Shown here in pieces: positions 1 through 37,766 of a stretch of DNA of 37,766 nt. Within the stretch, counting starts at the first letter, position 1, and each line of letters starts with the position of its first letter. The notes under the pieces are model-generated. The model worked only from the letters and a program-made list of their open reading frames with translations. It was not told the DNA's origin and searched no databases. The position numbers and the translations under genes were made by a program. Source of the stretch: a virus. The DNA lies in IMG/VR virus record IMGVR_UViG_3300009421_000002; one strand, 5' to 3'.

Positions 1-123
1 ATTGGTGTTGCTATAGAAATATTGGCGGTCTTGTTATTGCTAGAAGTAACGTTGTTTCTGGTGGTGCCGGCGTGGCGGCGGTTCTGTCGAGCAAGTGGAT
101 TGCTTTATGTGTTTGCCGGGACA
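1..123. repeat. Left copy of an exact 123-nt terminal redundancy (identical to 37644-37766)
   Basis: The string attggtgttgctatagaaat...tgtgtttgccgggaca occurs at both window ends in the same orientation. No mismatch seen. Confidence 0.95.
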
Positions 124-261
124 ATTCCAATGTTTTTCGCAGTGCTTCTGCCCGCGTACTTAGACGTTAGAGATCCGATATCTCATGTTTATTTTCTGGC
201 CGGGGTTTGCGTATCAGCAGCCGGCGTTCGGATTCTGTACGGGTCTCGGAATAATGAGTGA
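1..261 (+). CDS. 3' part of the same junction-spanning membrane protein
   Basis: Frame 1 is open from base 1 (IGVAIEILAVLLLLEVTLFLVV...) to TGA 259-261. About four hydrophobic helices overall. The ORF track's 22..261 is the TTG-truncated version. Confidence 0.6.
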   Translation: MGVAIEILAVLLLLEVTLFLVVPAWRRFCRASGLLYVFAGTIPMFFAVLLPAYLDVRDPISHVYFLAGVCVSAAGVRILYGSRNNE

Positions 262-637
262 AGCCACATCAGTGGTGTCGAAAGCCGGAGCGATTGCCGG
301 CGGTATAACCGCTGCCACTTCCAAGGTAAGAACTGTTGTTGCACCAGAGCTTTGGGAATTGCCTTGGGAGTCTTTGCTTTTCGCGTCTGGCATTGCGGCG
401 TTCTTCGGCGTGGTCAGCAGGTTGCGCAAAATCGAAGAAGGCTCTCTGGATTGGAGAAGCTTCTGGACGGCCGCAATCTCAGGCGGTTGCTCAGGTCTGA
501 TCGTCTCTGCTTTGATGCTGGGAAACAAAGCCGATCCGCTCTATGTGTTCGCCGCAATGGTTGTGTTCGGACTTTTAGGCGGTAAGGGTCTTGACTTGAT
601 TCTGAATCGCGGCGCTAAACAAGTAGAGGGCAAGTGA
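254..637 (+). CDS. Holin-like membrane protein, about three TM segments
   Basis: ATG 254 overlaps the upstream stop. Hydrophobic segments: LLFASGIAAFFGVV, FWTAAISGGCSGLIVSALML, LYVFAAMVVFGLLGG. Sits in the lysis cluster. The alternative start at 185 would overlap the upstream gene by 77 nt. Confidence 0.5.
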   Translation: MSEATSVVSKAGAIAGGITAATSKVRTVVAPELWELPWESLLFASGIAAFFGVVSRLRKIEEGSLDWRSFWTAAISGGCSGLIVSALMLGNKADPLYVFAAMVVFGLLGGKGLDLILNRGAKQVEGK

Positions 638-777
638 TGACACTCTTTCTATCTCTCGGCTTCGTCCTGATGTGCAGCCAGCCGATGCCAGGGGCTAAGC
701 ATGGTTTGTTGATGATCGACCACCCGATGCTGTTGCGCTATATCCCGTTGAAGGTCAAATGCAAAGGTGACGTTTGA
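637..777 (+). CDS. 46-aa ORF with a hydrophobic N-terminus and Cys13 (MTLFLSLGFVLMCSQPMPG...); possible small lipoprotein or membrane peptide
   Basis: ATGA overlap with the upstream stop (635-637) and TTGA overlap with the downstream start (774). It fills an otherwise empty 136-nt gap. It is below the ORF-track length cutoff. VLMC is not a canonical lipobox. Confidence 0.35.
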   Translation: MTLFLSLGFVLMCSQPMPGAKHGLLMIDHPMLLRYIPLKVKCKGDV

Positions 778-1196
778 TCGTTCGACTACAACGCCTGATC
801 AGCGGTTCACATGGGACGTTTGGCGTGTTGCGCGCCCCAGGCTGGACGGCGCTCAGCATTGAATGTCCGTGGATAAATAATATTCGCAATGTGTCGTGCA
901 TTCCTGATGGGCAATATCGAGTGGTGATGTCTTACTCGCCCAAATTCCGGCGGCGCATGTATGAGATTCTTGACGTACCGGGGCGGTCGGGTATTCGCTT
1001 GCACGGCGGCAACTTAGCCGGAGACCGGACCAAAGGGCTTATTACTCACTTCTCAGGTTGCATAGGGCTTGGCATCCGACAAGGTGTGTTGAGCAACCAG
1101 CGGGCAGTACTCATATCTCAAGCGACCGTCTCGACGTTTGAGAGTCTCATGCAGCACAAAGACTTTGACCTAATCATTGAGGGCGACCATGCTTGA
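774..1196 (+). CDS. DUF5675-family protein (YkuD/L,D-transpeptidase-like H..GC signature); candidate cell-wall enzyme of the lysis cassette
   Basis: Motifs GTFGVL, SCIPDGQY, SPKF, VPGRSGIRLHGGN and SGCIGLG fit my memory of the DUF5675 pattern. TTG start preceded by AAGGTGA. Confidence 0.6.
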   Translation: MIVRLQRLISGSHGTFGVLRAPGWTALSIECPWINNIRNVSCIPDGQYRVVMSYSPKFRRRMYEILDVPGRSGIRLHGGNLAGDRTKGLITHFSGCIGLGIRQGVLSNQRAVLISQATVSTFESLMQHKDFDLIIEGDHA

Positions 1197-1803
1197 ATCT
1201 CTCGCGGGAATTGCTACGGGTGGCTGGGGGCCGATTGTTGGGTCACTGGTTGGATTCGCTGGCGGCATCGTTAATAAGTTCATGGCTTACAAAGTTCGCA
1301 AGCTTGAGATTGCCGACAATGCCAATGCTCGCGCCCACGCCAAAGATATGGCCGTCATCAATTTCAATCGAGAGAAAGAGCTGACGACGCTTGAGATTGA
1401 AGGCCGCGCAAGACAGGCATCAATTGATGGTGAGATTGACATCGAGAAGATGGACTTGGGCAATCTGGGGATCTCGATTGGCGCAGACCGAGCCGCCTAC
1501 CTGTCTGAAGACGCCCAGGCAAAGAGCAAAGTGGTGATGTACGCAATGGCGGTGGTCGATTGGGTGCGCGGCATGACGCGGCCCGTGCTGACTATCTCGC
1601 TGATCTATGGCGCATGGCACATAAACATGCTGTTGATCGGATTTCTGGAGACGCTCAACAACGGCGGATTGCCGGTCAATGTCGTGATTCAACTCACGGT
1701 TATTTCAGTTGTCACTATTCTGACGCTGGCAACGACTGCTGTGGGTTACTGGTTCGGCTCTCGTCCGACTGTGCTCAAGAAGCTGTCCGAGGTGATTAAG
1801 TGA
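1189..1803 (+). CDS. Membrane protein with GTA_holin_3TM-like architecture (N-terminal TM, charged coiled region, C-terminal TM pair)
   Basis: ATG 1189 with SD GAGGG; overlaps the upstream stop. Sequence: GIATGGWGPIVGSLVGFAGGIV, then a charged stretch, then DWVRGMTRPVLTISLIYGAW and VIQLTVISVVTILTLATTAVGYWF. Confidence 0.5.
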   Translation: MLESLAGIATGGWGPIVGSLVGFAGGIVNKFMAYKVRKLEIADNANARAHAKDMAVINFNREKELTTLEIEGRARQASIDGEIDIEKMDLGNLGISIGADRAAYLSEDAQAKSKVVMYAMAVVDWVRGMTRPVLTISLIYGAWHINMLLIGFLETLNNGGLPVNVVIQLTVISVVTILTLATTAVGYWFGSRPTVLKKLSEVIK

Positions 1804-2105
1804 CAGACAAGCAGACCGAGTACCCGTGCGGTCCGTCCTGGCTATGGTGGCGCATCCGCAAATGGATATCACCTAAATGGGCGTGCCCATGCTGCCGAGC
1901 GCATGACAAAGGCTACACAGGCCAAGGGGATCGCAAGCTAGTCGATGCTGAATTCCGCAAATGCCTGATGATTTCTGCATGGCAGACGGGCGGCAGTGAG
2001 GGCCACGCCAATCGAGAGTTGCGGGCGTTCTTAGCGGGCATGTCGGTGACGGCGTTTGGCTGGCTGTTCAAGCGCCCGCGTTGGTGGAACGATCTGGGCC
2101 GCTGA
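1800..2105 (+). CDS. Small Cys-rich protein with a prokaryotic phospholipase-A2-like motif (YPCGPS ... CPCCRAHDKGY)
   Basis: GTG 1800 with SD GAGGTGA at 1789-1795; overlaps the upstream stop. The C-x-R/A-H-D-x-G-Y core resembles the His-Asp dyad motif of bacterial/fungal secreted PLA2. At 101 aa the size fits. Confidence 0.5.
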   Translation: MTDKQTEYPCGPSWLWWRIRKWISPKWACPCCRAHDKGYTGQGDRKLVDAEFRKCLMISAWQTGGSEGHANRELRAFLAGMSVTAFGWLFKRPRWWNDLGR

Positions 2106-2176: not shown

Positions 2177-5100
2177 ATGCCGATTAATGGGCAACCGTTT
2201 AAGGTCATCATGGCCACGGTATTTGACGACCCAAATCAGGCGGGCATTCAGCCCTATCGACCCCCGTTGCCAAAGTACATGCTGGCGCTTGCGCATAATG
2301 ATTTACCCAGCATCCCGGCTGCATACACCGCAGGGACTTATCCAATCCAGTTTGTAAACGGGCGCTGGGAAACAGAAAATCAGTTAGACATTACGACCCA
2401 AGACGCAATTAATGCCAAGGCCAGCTACGATGCCAAGCTGCCGCTGTGGTCGGTGCAGGGTGCGGTTACTGAGCTAATTGCCATTGATATTGAATGCTGG
2501 ATGTTTCCGCCGTTCACTTTTGGCGCGGATCTGCAATACACCATTGACAACATTGTGGACGCAGCACAAAAGCTGCAAGCCACATTGCAACAACCTCTAA
2601 CCTTCTACAACCTGGGCCCCGCGTCCGGCTTAGTTGCGACCAAGCAATACACTGCGCAAAACGACACGCTTGCGCCATTGCGGGGAGCCAATGACTTACT
2701 AATCCCGCAAATCAATCCGCACATTGCTGCATGGACGCCTAAGGCATACGCCGTTTACGACAGCGCAGATCAGACCACTAGCGACGCTGAATGGCAATGG
2801 TGGAAAGATTGGATTTCGTTTCAGGTTTCAGAAGCGCGTCGCTTGTCACCCAATACGCCGATTTATCCTTATCTTTGGTGGGAATACGACCCGGTCGGAG
2901 ATCAAGGGACAGGCACCGCAATTCCAATTAATCGGTGGCGAGAAATGCTCGACCACTGCTTATCTGTTGCTGACGGCGTAACAATCTGGGGCGGCGGTGC
3001 GGCAGAGTGGAGCGACTCAATGCCGTGGTGGGTCGAGCTACAGAGCTTTATGTCTGATAACGGTATAGACCAACCCAAGGAATCAAAAGTGCCATCATTT
3101 ACTGCCGACACCGCCACCCTCAATGCCGTCATATCGGCGGCAGACAATCCGGCCAAACGAGCGGCGGTCAATGCGGGGCTAGGCGAGGGCACACTGACCT
3201 TTGAGCTGGTCGCCCTGAACAGCATCATCACCGGCACATTCTCCGGCTCAGTTTGGGGTGATGCGGTGCTGGCTGTAGATAATGTGCAGCTTGCCAGCGT
3301 CGGCGGGCCAGGTGGGGCTGTAGCAGACGCCACGCGACTGACCGTTACCAATGCAAGCGGGCGATTTGTTCGCTTCCCCCCTGGGGCGTATTCGTTTGTT
3401 GGCGCTGGCGGCTCGGACAACGTACAACCCGGCAATGAGATCCGGGTGACATTCCGATACGAACCTGATCCCGTAACGCCACCAGCAGACGATCTATACA
3501 TCCCGGTTGCCGAGCTAATCGCTGGCATGGAAGAAGCCAGCACGTTACAGCCCGCATTCGGTCAACACACCAACAATGAGGCGGTGATGCGGTCGCCAAC
3601 CTATGATGCTGTTGTCGGCTACCTCGGGGCGGCCCCAGCAGGCCAAGATGACTTTGATGACTTCGTTGAGGAAATTTACCCGTGGCCGTGGGCGTATCCG
3701 GCAACAGGGCATAACGTGGGCATCGGTTTACGGCTCGAGATGCGGCGGCTGAAAGTGTCGGCTTGTCGAAAGAGCACGGGGCAATGGCAAGACTTGCCCG
3801 AGTCAGGCTTAGGCCCAAACCTAGGCTGGAATGGCAACACGCAGACCGGCCCAAGCACCAAACTACGCAACGAAGCAGGCACCGGCAATTTATCTTTTGG
3901 GCCAACTACCATCAATGAAGGCGTGGAAGTCTGGCCGCCCGTTGAAACCTACAAAGACAAAGCGTTATTCCGCGATACCAAAGCCTGGGGCATTGTGTTT
4001 CAGGCGCGGGTGATTGACGACAATGGCGACCCGTACAACGGCGCGGATGGTCGCTTTGCTGTGCAGCTTGGATTTGACCAGTACGGGGGCAGAGAACGCG
4101 GCGGTGACGACAAGTATGCAGCGCCAGCCCGTTATCCTCGGACTCGCGCAGACGGCGGAAACAAGCGCTGGGATCTAGTAACAGGCGGCGACTGGACGAC
4201 CATCGGCCTAATCACAATGGAATCGTTCAAGTTCAACGAGAATCCACATGCTGGCTACGTCCCGCCCTGGCCTTATGACCGCTCGCCTTATGTCCTCACC
4301 CGCCAGCAAGTGCTGGACAATCCGCCATCGTGGGCAACAGGGGGCGGCACATCAACCACTTCATCTATGTTCGGCGGTGTAGTCGATGCCGATCCAAACT
4401 ATGTAGTCAGGCCACGGCCCGCCAATGCGGTGCGCGATCTGATGGTGGCAACGGACCCGGCATGGCTTTGCGGAGAATTCGCGACGGGTTGGCACCAATG
4501 GCTTGGCGTTAAACAAGGCGGTGTGACTTCTACGCATATGCGCCTTGTCGATTGGCGCGACAACGGCAACCCGGATGACGGTGGCATGTTCGTCGGCTCA
4601 GTCGTTAAGAGTCGGCACAACTACGAAACGGCGAGGATTGCCAGATGTGCAGCGCAGAGTAATGGGTGCCCCAAGATTCTGCCAATCTGGATGTTTCCCA
4701 AGTGGATGATTTCAGCGGCCAACATTGCAGAAGTTCAAGCGCGAGGCGGACAGGAAAATCAATTTGGGCAGATATTTAATATCACCCGATACCCGTCATT
4801 CCCTTATGGTGCACACCCGCCCGAAACGTGGGAGTACATCAAGGAGTACGTGAGGGCGATCTATCGTCCCGTGTCTGAGTTGGGCCCAAATGGTGAGCCA
4901 GGACTAGGCTACACAAAAGACAATTGGCCAGTGCTTGAGCTGGGCAACGAACAGAAGTTTGCCAGTCGCACTATCGGTGCGAGTCGTGCGTGGTTTGCGT
5001 CAAGCTCTGCTGTCAATACGCGCTGCTTTAATCTCATGACTATGCGTGAGATGAACGAAGGATTGAGAGCGCTGAAAGAAGTTGCACCGGCTGGTGTGTT

Positions 5101-5758
5101 GGTTGCTGCTGGCGGCTATGAAGGGGATTTCAACGGCAGTGTAGGCAAGACACTGGCCAATCCAAACGCTGAATACTCGTATTTCCAAGCGCAGATGCTG
5201 ACCGATGACAATCACGGCGGACTTGGCATTGATCATGTCGACATTGTTTTTGCTCATCCGTATATGTACGCCTACAACCCAGAGCGCTCGCAAGTCGAGA
5301 TTGACAATTGCAGAGCGCAAATCGAGTGGCTTGCCGCGCATTTGGGAAGGCCTGAAATTGCAGCGATACCATTGCATTGCAACGAAACCGGGCACGAGTC
5401 GCCAAGCGGAGTTGATAACACTTACGGCACCATCACGTATTTGATCAATCAGCAAGGCGCAGCGTCCGCTTATGCCACCACTGCTCGCAACATGAAGCGG
5501 TCAGTTTTAATTTGGGTAGCCAATGGCTCAAAACAGAATTGCTTAGGCGGTAATCACTTTGTCGACCGTCCCTACGGAAACCCGCGTGATTCATATGGCG
5601 AGCGCCAGACTTACGGTGCCCCATCAGAAGTGCCCGAGCTGATCGCTGCAAACCAGTACGGCAATCAGGTGGTCAATAAAGTGGTGCGGCAAGCATACCA
5701 ATTATCAGACGGGCAAATTGTTTGCTACTTTGAAGATGGCACAACCTTACAGGCATAA
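2177..5758 (+). CDS. 1193-aa protein with two glycosidase-like TIM-barrel regions (GH56/hyaluronidase-like N-terminus; clan GH-A-like C-terminus); probable polysaccharide depolymerase
   Basis: N-terminal motifs: IAIDIECW, LTFYNLGP, IYPYLWWEY, DGVTIWGGG. C-terminal motifs: LELGNEQ (Glu codon 4949-4951), AHPYMY, CNETGHE (Glu codon 5384-5386). The two Glu residues are 145 residues apart. Confidence 0.6.
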   Translation: MPINGQPFKVIMATVFDDPNQAGIQPYRPPLPKYMLALAHNDLPSIPAAYTAGTYPIQFVNGRWETENQLDITTQDAINAKASYDAKLPLWSVQGAVTELIAIDIECWMFPPFTFGADLQYTIDNIVDAAQKLQATLQQPLTFYNLGPASGLVATKQYTAQNDTLAPLRGANDLLIPQINPHIAAWTPKAYAVYDSADQTTSDAEWQWWKDWISFQVSEARRLSPNTPIYPYLWWEYDPVGDQGTGTAIPINRWREMLDHCLSVADGVTIWGGGAAEWSDSMPWWVELQSFMSDNGIDQPKESKVPSFTADTATLNAVISAADNPAKRAAVNAGLGEGTLTFELVALNSIITGTFSGSVWGDAVLAVDNVQLASVGGPGGAVADATRLTVTNASGRFVRFPPGAYSFVGAGGSDNVQPGNEIRVTFRYEPDPVTPPADDLYIPVAELIAGMEEASTLQPAFGQHTNNEAVMRSPTYDAVVGYLGAAPAGQDDFDDFVEEIYPWPWAYPATGHNVGIGLRLEMRRLKVSACRKSTGQWQDLPESGLGPNLGWNGNTQTGPSTKLRNEAGTGNLSFGPTTINEGVEVWPPVETYKDKALFRDTKAWGIVFQARVIDDNGDPYNGADGRFAVQLGFDQYGGRERGGDDKYAAPARYPRTRADGGNKRWDLVTGGDWTTIGLITMESFKFNENPHAGYVPPWPYDRSPYVLTRQQVLDNPPSWATGGGTSTTSSMFGGVVDADPNYVVRPRPANAVRDLMVATDPAWLCGEFATGWHQWLGVKQGGVTSTHMRLVDWRDNGNPDDGGMFVGSVVKSRHNYETARIARCAAQSNGCPKILPIWMFPKWMISAANIAEVQARGGQENQFGQIFNITRYPSFPYGAHPPETWEYIKEYVRAIYRPVSELGPNGEPGLGYTKDNWPVLELGNEQKFASRTIGASRAWFASSSAVNTRCFNLMTMREMNEGLRALKEVAPAGVLVAAGGYEGDFNGSVGKTLANPNAEYSYFQAQMLTDDNHGGLGIDHVDIVFAHPYMYAYNPERSQVEIDNCRAQIEWLAAHLGRPEIAAIPLHCNETGHESPSGVDNTYGTITYLINQQGAASAYATTARNMKRSVLIWVANGSKQNCLGGNHFVDRPYGNPRDSYGERQTYGAPSEVPELIAANQYGNQVVNKVVRQAYQLSDGQIVCYFEDGTTLQA

Positions 5759-10796: not shown

Positions 10797-13004
10797 ATGG
10801 CGCAATCACGCTATCAGCCTATCGTCTCTTTTGTCTCGGGTGAGCTAACGCCACTACTGCGCGGTCGGTTTGATATGGCTCAGTATCGCCAGGGCTGCGA
10901 AGTGCTGCGCAACATGATGCCGTTGCCATTTGGCGGGGCAAAGCGCCGTGCAGGCACAGAGTTTTTGAATCGCGCCGACTCTGACGCAACCGGCAGTCGC
11001 TCTCGCCTGATCCCGTTTCATGTGTCAGTGACCGAATCGTATGTGATTGCAATTGGTCCAATCAACATAGTGGTTTACAACGGTACCGATGGCACTGTGG
11101 CGGCCACCATCCCGACGCCTTTTGGCAACGCTTACGAATCTTTGGACTATGAGCAGGCTGGTTTAACGCTGATTTTCACCGGGCCAAACACTAAGCCGAC
11201 ACGACTGGTCAAAACATCAAGCGGCTGGGGTATTGGGGCCATTCGGTTCTCTCCTGAGCCAACGGCGGTGCTTCCCGATAGCTACCCCGCGTCATCGTTT
11301 TCGCCCGCTAGCAGCAATCAAAACGGGTCGACAGTTGTTTTTACTGGCACGCCTCCTAGTGGCTCACTTAATCGGACAATCACACAAGGCAACAGCCTGG
11401 GGGTTGTTCAGTTTGTTTTTGCCGGTAGTTTCAACGTCATTGTTGAGACTGGTTTTGATCCGGCATCAACCTTGCCGTTTGAATTTTCCGGGCCATTGCA
11501 ATGGTCAATCACGCCAACAGGGTCAAACAGAGTCGGCGGCATTATGAACGTGTCGACAAACGGCGAATGGGATGCGTCTCGGATTGGCTCGGTGATCAAC
11601 ATCAACGGCGGCAAGATCCTAATTACCGGACTGGTCGACGCCTCGAACGTTACAGGCGAAGTATTGCAAGAGCTGGTGGATACCACTGGCGCGACAGGTG
11701 CATCATGGTCGCTTGAGTCGAAGATCTGGGGCGGTGGCACGAAAGGTTATCCGAGGGCGGTTGCATTCCATGAGCAGCGCCTACTGTTTGCTGGCTGGAA
11801 CGGCAACCCTACCGGCATCGTCGCCAGCGCTATCGGAATCCCGTTTGATTTTCGCGTAACCGAGTTGGCAGAGGATGGCTATGCGTACGCGCTGCAAACC
11901 AGCAAGCAAACGAGCATTCAATATCTCGTCAGCGATCAAGAGCTAATTGTTCACACCGATGAAGGCGAGTACGCGCTACTGCCCAGCAACAACGAAGCGC
12001 TATCGAGCGTCAATATCCCGAGAGCAAGACCGCAGTCGAAGCATGGTTGCCGAAGAATCAAACCGATCTCGGTCAATGAAGAACCTGTTTTTGTTCGCTT
12101 TGACGGTCGCAGAACTATTTCAATGGGCTATGACGGCGGCGCATCTGCTTACGTGCCCGCAGATATTGCCATTCTGGCAGAGCATTTGTTCAAGACACCC
12201 ATTATTGATATGACCTTTGCCAGGACGCCAGTCCCAACGATTTATTGTGTATTGGCCGATGGCACGATGGCTTGCTGCACTTATGATCGCAGTCAGAGCG
12301 TTGTCGCGTGGTGGCCGTGGGACACCAATGGAAAAATCGAATCTGTCACTGCGGTCTCGAGCGGTGAGCGCGATGAGGTCTATATGTGCTGCACTCGCAT
12401 TGGTGATACGCATCGAGTCATTGAACGGGTGCGGGATGATTGGTATCCCCGCAATGATGAAGCAGCAGCGGGTGACATAAACAAACGCATTGGCGTGATG
12501 CTTGACTGCGCAACGCTTGAGATTAGCCCGGCGTTTTTAGTCGAAGTTGATATGAACCCAATCTTTCGCAGCGTGGTCATGACCGCTGTTGCTGATGGGT
12601 ACGACGCTGGAGAGCGAGCAGTGCCGCTAGACAACACCTATCAAATATCAAACTTCGCGGATCGGATTGCAGTGGGGTTCAACTACACCAGCGAGCTTGC
12701 CCCCATGCCCAACGAAGCGGCCACACAATCAGGGACAGGCCAGGGGCGACCAGTACGCACCGGCCCTGCCATGCTGAAAGTACACAACAGCATCGGCGGC
12801 ACAGTGAACGATCTAAACCAGATTGGCCCGTCACCAGTACACTCGGACGATTCACGCGCGACGCCAATTGAATTACTAACCGGCGAATCAGATATGACGC
12901 TGCAAGGGTGGAAGCGCGACGAGCCCAGCATGAGGATTAAGCAGGTCAGGCCGTACCCGCTTCACGTCCTATTCATTTCGGAACGGCTGAGTAACGCGCC
13001 ATGA
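10797..13004 (+). CDS. Tail tubular protein B / nozzle (T7 gp12-like)
   Basis: 735 aa. The N-terminus SFVSGELTPLLRGRFDMAQYRQGCEVLRNMMPLPFGGAKRRAGTEF matches the conserved opening of podoviral nozzle proteins. Confidence 0.7.
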   Translation: MAQSRYQPIVSFVSGELTPLLRGRFDMAQYRQGCEVLRNMMPLPFGGAKRRAGTEFLNRADSDATGSRSRLIPFHVSVTESYVIAIGPINIVVYNGTDGTVAATIPTPFGNAYESLDYEQAGLTLIFTGPNTKPTRLVKTSSGWGIGAIRFSPEPTAVLPDSYPASSFSPASSNQNGSTVVFTGTPPSGSLNRTITQGNSLGVVQFVFAGSFNVIVETGFDPASTLPFEFSGPLQWSITPTGSNRVGGIMNVSTNGEWDASRIGSVININGGKILITGLVDASNVTGEVLQELVDTTGATGASWSLESKIWGGGTKGYPRAVAFHEQRLLFAGWNGNPTGIVASAIGIPFDFRVTELAEDGYAYALQTSKQTSIQYLVSDQELIVHTDEGEYALLPSNNEALSSVNIPRARPQSKHGCRRIKPISVNEEPVFVRFDGRRTISMGYDGGASAYVPADIAILAEHLFKTPIIDMTFARTPVPTIYCVLADGTMACCTYDRSQSVVAWWPWDTNGKIESVTAVSSGERDEVYMCCTRIGDTHRVIERVRDDWYPRNDEAAAGDINKRIGVMLDCATLEISPAFLVEVDMNPIFRSVVMTAVADGYDAGERAVPLDNTYQISNFADRIAVGFNYTSELAPMPNEAATQSGTGQGRPVRTGPAMLKVHNSIGGTVNDLNQIGPSPVHSDDSRATPIELLTGESDMTLQGWKRDEPSMRIKQVRPYPLHVLFISERLSNAP

Positions 13005-13456
13005 TCAGAACCGCCAACCACGCAGACGCCACGATGATTGCCGCGATGGCTTACGACATGCACAAGCAAAGCCGGTTTGCCACTGACTATCCTTTCGATC
13101 ATGACAAGTTTGCGCAGATGCTTGCCGTGGCGATTGACTCGGACACTTATTGCGTTCGTGTGTCGATTGAGCAGGACGGCACGATTAACGGCGGGCTGAT
13201 TGGTTTTGTGTCGCCGCAATTCTTTAGCGCTGCGATGGTCGCTCAGGATGTCGGCATGTTTGTTGTGCCATCGGCGCGGCAGGCTGGCATCGGCAAAGAT
13301 CTGGCCACCGCGTTTTATGAGTGGGCGTGCGATGTGGGCGCGGTCGATTGTGAGATGGGCTGCAATACCGGCGTGGCTCGATCTGGGTTTGGTCAGTTGA
13401 TGGATCACATGGGGTTTGAGAATGTTGGCGATCTGTTTTCTAAGAGGTGTCGATAA
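13001..13456 (+). CDS. GNAT-family N-acetyltransferase
   Basis: Motif A R-x-x-G-x-G (ARQAGIGKDL) follows a beta strand VGMFVV. C-terminal GFENVG. ATGA overlap with the nozzle gene. Confidence 0.8.
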   Translation: MIRTANHADATMIAAMAYDMHKQSRFATDYPFDHDKFAQMLAVAIDSDTYCVRVSIEQDGTINGGLIGFVSPQFFSAAMVAQDVGMFVVPSARQAGIGKDLATAFYEWACDVGAVDCEMGCNTGVARSGFGQLMDHMGFENVGDLFSKRCR

Positions 13457-22439: not shown

Positions 22440-22698
22440 CGGGAATTAAAGCGCGGATAGATTTGGCGGCTGTATCAAGCCCTGAGTTGTGGCCTGCCGC
22501 CAAATTAATGCAATGAAGCGAATCGGGAATAATTTTTGATTCACATTCTTCTGCTGCTCGCTCAAACGCAAGACGAATCAACTCGGTTGAGAATGCCCAT
22601 CCCTCCGGAGTCGTGTCGTCAACGTCAATATCACCATAAGGTGAAATCGCTCCAACAGCTCGCGCGACAATGTCGTGAATTTCTTGTTCATCCATCAC
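22417..22698 (-). CDS. Hypothetical acidic protein, last gene of the leftward early operon
   Basis: ATGA overlap with the upstream lipoprotein gene. Its 3' end overlaps the terL 3' end by 23 bp. Confidence 0.5.
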   Translation of the reverse strand: MMDEQEIHDIVARAVGAISPYGDIDVDDTTPEGWAFSTELIRLAFERAAEECESKIIPDSLHCINLAAGHNSGLDTAAKSIRALIPANRPSEH

Positions 22699-23279
22699 CG
22701 ATTCCTTATCCCTTCAACATCATTAGCCGCAACACCACAGGCCACAAACAGATCGCGCTCGGAGCCATGAATAGCCCAGCCCACAATCTCGCCGTTCCTG
22801 TCGAGCGTCGTCCATGTTTGTTCGCTGCCTGACTCGTTCAACCACCACGAGTAGGTGACGCCAGACCCATGCAGTTCAATGATGGCAGTGGCCGGGTTAG
22901 TGTCATAGGTGAAGTCTGAGCCACCGATACCCAAGTCAAAGTTTGTCGTCTGCTGCTCGGCATAGACAATCAGAAAACGCGGCAATGAGCCGTTGTTTCC
23001 GCGAACGCAATCGAGCGTGGCCGACATATTGTCTACTAGCTGCGGGTACGTTGGCTCAGGCTCGGCAGGCGCGACGATCACGGGCTCAGGCGAACCAACC
23101 ACAGGGGCCGGTGCTGGCTGCTGGCGCTGCTCTGGTGCTGGCTGTGACGGCTGCGCCGGTTCTACTGCGGGTTGCTCGTCGCGCTGCGCTGAGTCGGTGG
23201 ATGTCGGGGCGACTGATTCGCCACCGCCACCGCAGGCGGCTAAGAGTAAGGCGAGAAGTAAAGGGGTAATGGTTTTCAT
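22695..23279 (-). CDS. Lipoprotein with a Pro/Gln/Ala-rich linker and a C-terminal globular domain
   Basis: Signal peptide MKTITPLLLALLLAAC with lipobox LAAC, followed by GGGG. SD and ATGA coupling present. Confidence 0.8.
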   Translation of the reverse strand: MKTITPLLLALLLAACGGGGESVAPTSTDSAQRDEQPAVEPAQPSQPAPEQRQQPAPAPVVGSPEPVIVAPAEPEPTYPQLVDNMSATLDCVRGNNGSLPRFLIVYAEQQTTNFDLGIGGSDFTYDTNPATAIIELHGSGVTYSWWLNESGSEQTWTTLDRNGEIVGWAIHGSERDLFVACGVAANDVEGIRNR

Positions 23280-37382: not shown

Positions 37383-37532
37383 TTATGACCCCCACACACC
37401 GGCACCCGGATGTTCAACGGCCATGACCCATTCCCCGGTTATTTGCGCGTCAGGCTTTCTATTGTTAAAAGCAAATTGCAAAAAACTATGAAAAACACCA
37501 ACGGCTTGTCAGGGCGACAAGGTGATCGGCTA

Positions 37533-37766
37533 ATGATCCGATTCCTCTGTTTGCTGTGGCCTGGGGCGCTGGGTTACCTTGGCGCTTACAGTGCGGCTTC
37601 CAGCACTTCTCGCGTGTTCGCGTCGATTCCAAACGGTCAAGTGATTGGTGTTGCTATAGAAATATTGGCGGTCTTGTTATTGCTAGAAGTAACGTTGTTT
37701 CTGGTGGTGCCGGCGTGGCGGCGGTTCTGTCGAGCAAGTGGATTGCTTTATGTGTTTGCCGGGACA
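37533..37766 (+). CDS. 5' part of a junction-spanning multi-TM membrane protein (123 aa once the overlap is collapsed); first gene of the lysis cluster
   Basis: ATG 37533 with SD AAGGTGA at 37519-37525. The frame stays open to the window end and continues in frame 1 at base 1. An in-frame ATG at 37488 has no SD. Confidence 0.6.
   Translation, partial: MIRFLCLLWPGALGYLGAYSAASSTSRVFASIPNGQVIGVAIEILAVLLLLEVTLFLVVPAWRRFCRASGLLYVFAGT
37644..37766. repeat. Right copy of the 123-nt terminal redundancy
   Basis: Identical to bases 1-123. It lies inside an open reading frame. Confidence 0.95.

Follow-up and report, generated by a model that had tools for sequence, protein, structure and literature searches.

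A cluster of six coupled genes (g1 to g6) runs across the ends of a 37,766-nucleotide viral DNA, IMG/VR record IMGVR_UViG_3300009421_000002 (the window, by which we mean this whole stretch). The cluster is very probably a lysis cassette. On balance, we favor the view that it is the lysis cassette of a T7-like podophage built from non-standard parts, in which g4, a DUF5675 protein, would act as the endolysin, g5 would act as the holin, and g6, which resembles phospholipases A2 (PLA2), would take the place of spanins. This view is based on gene structure and coupling, family and fold relationships, conserved residues, synteny and the missing standard families.

The cluster and its genome

Bases 1–123 and 37644–37766 of the window are identical, so that 123 bp are directly repeated at its two ends. 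The true length of the genome, which is circular or terminally redundant, is 37,643 bp and, because of the repeat, g1 reads across the junction. A first-pass annotation, made from the sequence alone, had described six coupled genes from 37533 through the junction to 2105. All six open reading frames (ORFs) were found as described, with an overlap of 1–8 nt at every junction. A Shine-Dalgarno-like motif, read directly from the sequence, lies 5′ of every start in the cluster (Table 1). By hydropathy, g1 has four hydrophobic segments, in agreement with its description as a four-transmembrane protein. Three segments each were found in g2 and g5, and g3 has an N-terminal hydrophobic stretch only.

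The genome is that of a T7-like podophage. Family scans identified T7-type structural genes for a Phage_capsid_2 capsid, a head-tail connector and a T7-like terminase, as well as genes for internal virion proteins and for the tail proteins phrog_394 and phrog_376, which we take to be of the T7 tail-tubular A and B type. RecT, a PDDEXK nuclease, a Holliday-junction resolvase and a GNAT acetyltransferase are also encoded. The cluster is located between a tailspike-like gene and other structural genes. In relatives, the cassette ends the late operon or sits just before the portal/terminase.

Table 1. Coordinates, junctions and ribosome-binding motifs of the six cluster genes (aa, amino acids).
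Gene	Coordinates (strand)	Description	Stop codon and overlapping start of next gene	Shine-Dalgarno-like motif
g1, 5′ part	37533–37766 (+)	123-aa membrane protein; continues at window position 124		AGGTGA before 37533
g1, 3′ part	1–261 (+)	bases 1–123 duplicate the window end	TGA 259–261 overlaps g2 ATG 254 (ATGAGTGA)	
g2	254–637 (+)	127 aa, three hydrophobic segments; candidate LydA-type (holin superfamily III) holin	635–637 overlaps g3 GTG 634 or ATG 637 (GTGATGA)	
g3	637–777 (+), alternative start 634	46-aa peptide	775–777 overlaps g4 TTG 774	AGAGGG before 634/637
g4	774–1196 (+)	140 aa, DUF5675; predicted endolysin	1194–1196 overlaps g5 ATG 1189	AAGGTGA before 774
g5	1189–1803 (+)	204 aa; DUF5675 partner, predicted holin or release factor	1801–1803 overlaps g6 GTG 1800	GAGGG before 1189
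g6	1800–2105 (+)	101 aa, all-helical, Cys-containing; predicted secreted-PLA2-like lipid hydrolase		GAGGTGA before 1800

Standard endolysins and spanins

About 45 ORFs were scanned with Pfam and/or PHROGs, and NCBIfam was run on ten proteins (the six of the cluster and four large structural proteins). No lysozyme, amidase, transglycosylase, CHAP, M15/M23 or spanin family matched among the ~45 ORFs, and NCBIfam added nothing for the ten proteins. No lysozyme-like domain was detected when the 1193-, 633- and 720-aa proteins were searched by sequence against the PDB. The earlier remark that none of these wall enzymes was recognised in the genome is borne out by Pfam, PHROGs, NCBIfam and PDB searches. 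The accompanying phrase "no recognisable canonical endolysin" is right in that no standard family was detectable, but the cassette does hold an endolysin candidate, the DUF5675 protein g4.

The 808-aa protein matches phrog_342 ("internal virion protein with endolysin domain") only at profile positions 820–1219 of 1235. The lytic domain of T7 gp16-type proteins lies N-terminally. Since the match is C-terminal, the 808-aa protein was not counted as an endolysin.

A six-frame lipobox scan of the circular genome showed no spanin-like lipoprotein and gave two candidates only, g3 (VLMC) and an ORF at 22695–23279. No lipoprotein with a canonical lipobox was found together with an inner-membrane partner in or near the cassette. 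Both the family scans and the genome-wide lipobox scan agree with the earlier observation that no i-spanin/o-spanin pair was seen. The ORF at 22695–23279 (−) is part of the early/recombination region, matches no family and encodes a canonical 194-aa lipoprotein (MKTITPLLLALLLAAC...) that has a Pro-rich linker. It was rejected as an o-spanin because of its strand, region and length, and because it has no partner and no C-terminal transmembrane segment. This lipoprotein may be a moron or exclusion protein.

g4 as an endolysin candidate

The assignment of g4 to DUF5675 in the first-pass annotation was confirmed by Pfam (80.6 bits, compared with a cut-off of 26.7). The match to PF18925 has an E-value of 1e-22 and covers profile positions 2–113 of 114, and the homologues of g4 carry precomputed PF18925 assignments. 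No signal or signal-arrest-release (SAR) sequence is present. Two DUF5675 alignments were made with sequences from this phage, Vibrio siphophages, an Alteromonas podophage, two Microviridae, a flavobacterial island and an alphaproteobacterial prophage. His77, Asn80 and Gly95-Cys96 are invariant in both, and His77 and Cys96 are the candidate catalytic residues. g4 has the H...G-C catalytic motif of the L,D-transpeptidase/YkuD (MEROPS C82) peptidases.

An AlphaFold2 (AF2) model of g4 with a predicted local distance difference test (pLDDT) score of 78 was compared with the PDB by Foldseek. The sole meaningful match was Csd6 (4xzz_A; probability 0.96, E = 0.037, TM-score 0.48), an L,D-carboxypeptidase of H. 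pylori with an L,D-transpeptidase fold. Tlde1_dom (PF10908) matched g4 weakly (E = 0.13; 13.2 bits, compared with a cut-off of 30.1), and the YkuD profile (PF03734) did not match g4 at E ≤ 1. g4 is likely an endolysin, predicted to be a small cytoplasmic Cys/His peptidoglycan peptidase of L,D-transpeptidase (YkuD/C82-like) fold.

DUF5675 as a lysin has already been proposed by others, and g4 is another member of this poorly characterized kind. On the basis of structure, a 2026 preprint places a DUF5675 lysin in a "C82-like" class (bioRxiv 10.64898/2026.04.11.717860), and the YkuD class is a rare but catalogued endolysin domain (PhaLP). In crAss-like phages, DUF5675 is annotated as "transpeptidase catalytic domain". 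The domain was found in 133 phage records, including Microviridae. Over 151 loci, an ORF for a transmembrane protein adjoins 86–92% of DUF5675 genes, and the figure for control genes of these loci is 37–44%. DUF5675 lies beside a "TM-helix protein" in two cultured lytic Vibrio phages, whose papers name no phage endolysin or holin.

In Microviridae, DUF5675 with the conserved His/Cys pair was located at 3955–4380 of locus L010 and 7–384 of locus L011, in single-stranded DNA genomes of 5–7 kb with 7–8 genes. In Bacteroidota (loci L016, L019 and L057, ~2700–4850), an island contains an excisionase-like gene, a ~190–250-aa protein, DUF5675 and one or two tiny transmembrane proteins. Unlike the phage cassettes, these Bacteroidota islands have no g5-family partner.

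g5 as the membrane partner of DUF5675

The layout of g5 comprises a Gly-rich N-terminal transmembrane segment, ~100 aa of charged coiled coil, a D..RG..RP motif, two C-terminal transmembrane segments and a basic C-terminus. It matches phrog_6637 with an E-value of 2.4e-8, and scans of genome and viral collections with g5 found no close relatives. Directly 3′ of DUF5675, a g5 homologue is encoded by Vibrio phages, by Alteromonas phage PT11-V19, at loci L003, L005 and L006, and by Thalassobaculaceae and Maridesulfovibrio prophages. When metagenome loci with enough flank were compared, the g5 family was found directly after DUF5675 in 27 of 47. In the Vibrio and Alteromonas phage cassettes, the g5 homologue is the only nearby membrane protein. 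A 41-member g5 profile, built without locus L009, scores 28 bits with the membrane protein encoded before a Phage_lysozyme (GH24) gene at that locus. Two unrelated wall enzymes thus have partners from one membrane family, a pattern known from holins.

g5 had been described as GTA_holin_3TM-like, and this did not hold, as three tests detected no homology. PF11351 (GTA_holin_3TM) did not match g5 or six of its homologues at E ≤ 1, whereas true members at loci L007 and L008 score 1e-19. The hhalign probability between g5 and GTA_holin_3TM is 1.9%, and the 41-sequence g5 profile scores true GTA_holin_3TM members at ~2 bits. As far as sequence can tell, both g2 and g5 look like holins in that each is a small protein with at least one transmembrane segment and a charged C-terminus, encoded beside the predicted endolysin. 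g5 is most likely the holin that would let g4 reach the wall.

g6 as a PLA2-like protein

A word-indexed protein search with g6 found only g6 itself, and tblastn against phages found nothing. An exhaustive HMMER search of 1.8 billion representatives identified 7 further proteins with E-values up to 0.001, five of which are full-length (~100 aa). C10, G11, C32, H35, D36, Y39, R45, D49, F52, G87 and W88 are invariant in nine family members, whose identity to g6 is only 30–48%. The motifs of g6 read CGP...C..HD..Y...R...D..F...GW.FK.PR.W, and its C-terminal tail is rich in Trp, Arg and Lys. H35, D36, Y39 and D49 would provide the His-Asp dyad, the HDxxY motif and the downstream Asp of a secreted PLA2 (sPLA2) catalytic site.

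The first-pass annotation had called g6 PLA2-like. Several weak searches do converge on PLA2s, but all of them fall below curated thresholds. In Pfam, PLA2G12 matched g6 with an E-value of 0.047 (14.1 bits, compared with a cut-off of 34) and matched three of the nine members (best 0.0036), and DUF1353 matched one member of nine (0.0062). g6 does not reach the Pfam cut-off of any PLA2 family. The second match of a PDB sequence-profile search was TbSP1, a fungal group XIII/XIV PLA2, with C..HD..Y, R..D..F and a terminal GWL aligned. By hhalign, the g6 family scored 86% with a TbSP1 fragment and 72% with the DUF1353 protein of phage FNU1, and the HD..Y and D..F motifs of g6 align with both. Foldseek with a g6 model (pLDDT 76) gave a bacterial PLA2 as the best PDB match (8k1w; probability 0.72, TM-score 0.49, E = 2.8). 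The best matches in BFVD were parvovirus/densovirus VP1 proteins (probability 0.63–0.66), which carry a PLA2 domain.

TtaP, the founding member of DUF1353, is an experimentally shown PLA2 with residues H70, D71 and D85 (PMC11525133). The spacing from H35 to D49 in g6 (14 residues) resembles this arrangement. g6 is probably a real but distant relative of the secreted PLA2 and DUF1353 proteins.

Genes of the g6 family follow DUF5675 and g5 in the window and at loci L005 and L006. At L009, such a gene follows the g5-like gene and the GH24 lysozyme gene, and at L007 and L008 it ends an operon that holds GTA_holin_3TM and Peptidase_M15_4. Relatives of g6 are therefore found in or near lysis cassettes of three endolysin types, DUF5675, GH24 lysozyme and M15_4. 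In Fusobacterium phage FNU1 (L092), the region 2198–3859 encodes the DUF1353 protein, a 157-aa membrane protein, an N-acetylmuramoyl-L-alanine amidase and then a 101-aa protein with an N-terminal transmembrane segment and a coiled coil. Counted from the amidase endolysin gene, the DUF1353 gene is the second one upstream, and it provides another case of a PLA2-superfamily gene in a lysis cluster.

The genes upstream of g4

The start of g1 is ambiguous. The best ribosome-binding site is at 37533, and ATG codons at 37488 and 37410 are alternatives. The in-frame stretch 37410–37532 encodes MFNGHDPFPGYLRVRLSIVKSKLQK (MFNGHDP...). It shares 41% identity with the N-terminal part of its L005 equivalent, and g1 could be a dual-start gene or have a longer isoform. 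No Pfam, PHROG or NCBIfam family matched g1, and tblastn found no match to g1 or to g2 in phages.

The earlier description of g2 as a holin-like protein with three transmembrane segments stands for the segments, but its support as a holin is sub-threshold only. g2 matches Phage_holin_3_3 (LydA holin, PF16083) at 23.8 bits, compared with a cut-off of 28.4 (E = 4.8e-5, positions 5–77 of 78), and phrog_785 ("holin") at 4.9e-5. In the close relative L005, g2 is not conserved and g1 is not conserved beyond its N-terminal 32 residues, whereas g4 and g5 are 84% and 79% identical to those of the window. This fits an exchangeable holin/antiholin module. The g1/g2 slot holds a different pair at L003 (5168–7444), L006 (4918–5633) and L009 (3358–5011), where the replacement includes a 160–190-aa protein with an N-terminal transmembrane segment and a C..VWH.IFGP motif. 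At L003 and L009, a very basic peptide of 51–55 aa is also encoded after the enzyme/holin pair. The 160–190-aa protein and the basic peptide are further candidate lysis accessories.

g3 had been listed as a 46-aa hydrophobic peptide. The peptide exists, but it is hydrophobic at its N-terminus only. This 13-residue stretch ends in the non-canonical lipobox-like VLMC, and a second Cys lies near the C-terminus. No Pfam, PHROG or NCBIfam family matched g3. Its sole homologue is at L005 (E = 1.2e-10), and it is absent from all other DUF5675+g5 loci. The L005 homologue (2057–2276) is split in two frames at a C-run, by either an assembly error or a genuine frameshift. The lipobox rule is [AGS]-C at the cleavage site of a lipoprotein signal peptide. 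Because the leader of g3 ends in Met-Cys (Ile-Cys in L005) and so violates this rule, g3 was not called an o-spanin. Out of frame inside the g1 equivalent of L005 (1428–1607) lies an ORF of 59 aa whose product has a basic n-region and the canonical lipobox LSGC. The window has no counterpart of this ORF, which may well be due to chance.

Neighboring genes and sequence relatives

Directly after the cluster lies an ORF of 1193 aa (2177–5758), for which Pfam, PHROGs, NCBIfam and the PDB gave no match. Over its first ~270 residues, it shows homology (E = 9e-25) with a 374-aa L005 protein (139–1263) encoded just before the L005 cluster. A two-sequence profile of the 1193-aa protein and this homologue gave weak matches to GH56 hyaluronidase (E 0.2–0.3). 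The 1193-aa protein is probably a tail-spike glycanase. The GNAT acetyltransferase gene (Acetyltransf_1; phrog_1249) at 13001–13456 lies between the genes for the tail-tubular-B-like protein and the internal virion proteins, which is an odd spot for an enzyme. Promoter and terminator scans gave counts at or below shuffle expectation. GenBank phages showed no nucleotide match to the cluster or to 19 kb of the genome, and no close relative was found among them.

Proposed mechanism and alternatives

The activities and the order of events that we infer for the cassette are as follows. Triggering of the g5 holin, perhaps timed by g1 and g2, would free g4 and g6 from the cytoplasm. g1, with its four transmembrane segments, and the LydA-like g2 would probably form a second holin or an antiholin timing module, divergent and exchangeable. 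g4 would then cut L,D bonds of the stem peptide, most likely the bond between meso-diaminopimelate (mDAP) and D-Ala, and a cut in the donor stem would sever 4-3 cross-links. g6 would enter the periplasm after holin triggering, where a C10-C32 disulfide may stabilize it, and its Trp/Arg/Lys tail would carry it to membranes. There it would hydrolyze phospholipids, presumably those of the inner leaflet of the outer membrane, and weaken the last barrier in place of spanins. The cluster had earlier been suggested to be an alternative three-step lysis system. A PLA2-like protein is indeed part of the cassette, but the outer-membrane step is a plausible proposal only, and g6 is rare.

Several observations weigh against this scheme. 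The PDB sequence-profile search with g4 gave noise only, its Foldseek E-value is only 0.037, and the searchable literature reports no measured activity for any DUF5675 protein. Csd6 and Tlde1 are carboxypeptidases, and a pure carboxypeptidase would not lyse the cell. With such enzymes as the closest structural relatives of g4, its lytic endopeptidase activity is something we infer. g1, g2 and g5 compete as the holin, with the evidence for g2 below the Pfam cut-off, and the 1193-aa neighbor with its weakly GH56-like domain is a putative glycanase. The host is almost certainly Gram-negative, as judged from the T7-like tail genes. It is quite unlikely, in our judgment, that DUF5675 and g5 instead form a peptidoglycan-remodeling or exclusion module (for example, an L,D-carboxypeptidase with an anchor or immunity protein) and that the endolysin is an ORFan or a domain of a structural protein. 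Such a module would fit the nature of Csd6 and Tlde1, which are carboxypeptidases or exchange enzymes and not lytic endopeptidases, the small Bacteroidota islands, which are not obvious prophages, and the several window ORFs with no assigned function, among them the 1193-aa protein. However, g4 lies where an endolysin gene would be expected in a coupled cassette that also has holin-like genes, and g5-family proteins elsewhere pair with a GH24 lysozyme. Moreover, the Microviridae with DUF5675 have no room for accessory functions in 5–7 kb, and the papers on lytic Vibrio phages carrying DUF5675 name no other lysin.

Other difficulties concern the outer-membrane step. The g6 family is tiny, with ~9 members among the 1.8 billion representatives (phrog_6098), and g6 has no export signal. 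Each link to PLA2 is weak, with database E-values > 0.4, a TM-score of 0.49 and a pLDDT of 76 from only 9 sequences. A distance of 3 kb separates the g6 homologue from the holin/endolysin pair at L007 and L008. Both g6 and a detectable spanin are missing from most DUF5675+g5 cassettes, so g6 is not a generally required third step and is at best one of several solutions. These cassettes, together with the sub-threshold PLA2 links, also speak for a reading that we consider unlikely but worth serious attention, namely that the cassette lyses the cell while g6 is a membrane-active or regulatory accessory and not a spanin-replacing lipid hydrolase. The outer membrane would then break passively or by another factor. 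In that case g6 could have a cationic "disruptin"-type tail, could act at the inner membrane to sharpen holin triggering, or could have a role at entry and not at exit. The C-terminus of the family is strongly cationic and Trp-rich, and phiKT gp28 shows that a cationic peptide can perform the outer-membrane step (bioRxiv 10.1101/515445). TtaP, the only characterized DUF1353 PLA2, gave no envelope phenotype (PMC11525133). On the other hand, the His-Asp, Tyr and Asp residues of g6 are invariant despite the low identity within the family, which argues for catalysis, and the best matches in four independent libraries are all PLA2s.

It is highly improbable that the cassette has unrecognized spanins, with g3 as an o-spanin-like lipoprotein, g5 as its inner-membrane partner, g2 as the holin, g4 as the endolysin and g6 as an extra. 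The short hydrophobic leader of g3 does end in Cys and a second Cys is conserved, and g5 has an N-terminal transmembrane segment followed by ~100 aa of charged helix. Calls of "no spanin" have also been overturned before, for example in LambdaSo, where experiments revealed hidden nested spanins (bioRxiv 10.1101/2024.01.23.576932). Yet the residue at position −1 of g3 (Met, or Ile in L005) departs from [AGS]-C, no basic n-region precedes it, and g3 is limited to the window and L005 among the DUF5675+g5 loci. g5 has two further transmembrane segments, and its charge distribution would put the coiled coil in the cytoplasm. As the sole membrane protein beside DUF5675 in the Vibrio and Alteromonas phages, the g5 homologue must supply the holin function there. 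No PHROG spanin match was found. g3 and g5 were rejected as spanins on lipobox and topology grounds.

Comparison with known systems

Like the lambda S-R-Rz/Rz1 and P1 LydA/Lyz cassettes, the cluster is a coupled late cluster with small multi-transmembrane proteins beside a soluble wall enzyme that has no signal sequence, and g2 weakly resembles the P1 LydA holin. Compared with those cassettes, the wall enzyme of the window is not a glycosidase, amidase or M15/M23 peptidase. There is no detectable Rz/Rz1 or u-spanin, and three candidate membrane proteins and a PLA2-like gene are present.

g4 has the His...Gly-Cys motif and the presumed mDAP-D-Ala L,D target of Csd6, of the type VI secretion system (T6SS) effector Tlde1 and of the YkuD lysin domains listed in PhaLP, and its model resembles Csd6. 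However, g4 is a much smaller single domain (140 aa) in a separate Pfam family, and lytic endopeptidase activity is assumed for it.

g6 resembles TtaP/DUF1353 and the group XIV sPLA2s (Streptomyces SvPLA2 and Tuber TbSP1) in being small and helical, with His-Asp followed by Asp ~14 residues on, Tyr three residues after the first Asp and a C-terminal helix that ends in G-W. It differs from them in its N-terminal C-G-P motif, the invariant Cys pair C10/C32, the cationic Trp-rich tail and its own tiny family. TtaP shares a genetic islet with TtsA, a muramidase that resembles prophage muramidases, and DUF1353 genes are found in prophages and also close to the amidase gene of FNU1.

Precedents or proposals for breaching the outer lipid barrier without spanins are mycobacteriophage LysB (an esterase), phiKT gp28 (a cationic peptide) and the patatin of phage WO (a phospholipase). 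These are different from g6. LysB, an alpha/beta-hydrolase, has mycolyl-arabinogalactan as its target, gp28 is not an enzyme, and the WO patatin has another fold and is a proposal only. A literature search found no report of an sPLA2-fold protein in the lysis of a Gram-negative host. The novelty lies in the combination and in the PLA2-like component. In its architecture, the cluster works as canonical cassettes do, but its parts are non-canonical.

Significance

A recognizable spanin is missing in about 15% of phages that infect Gram-negative bacteria (bioRxiv 10.1101/515445). It is possible, though we hold it doubtful, that the g6 family and phage DUF1353 proteins are unrecognized third-step lipolytic disruptors of the outer membrane, acting instead of or alongside spanins and paired in this phage with DUF5675 and g5. 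A PLA2-like enzyme that recurs in lysis cassettes of three endolysin types offers a concrete, testable hypothesis for the outer-membrane step of spanin-less phages. A lysis role of g6 may also explain the puzzling pairing of TtaP and TtsA in the typhoid toxin islet. If the proposed roles are true, DUF5675 and a g5-type partner would fill the places of the "missing" endolysin and holin of over 100 sequenced phages, among them aquaculture-relevant Vibrio phages, crAss-like phages and some Microviridae. A class of cysteine L,D-peptidases would then join the enzybiotic repertoire.

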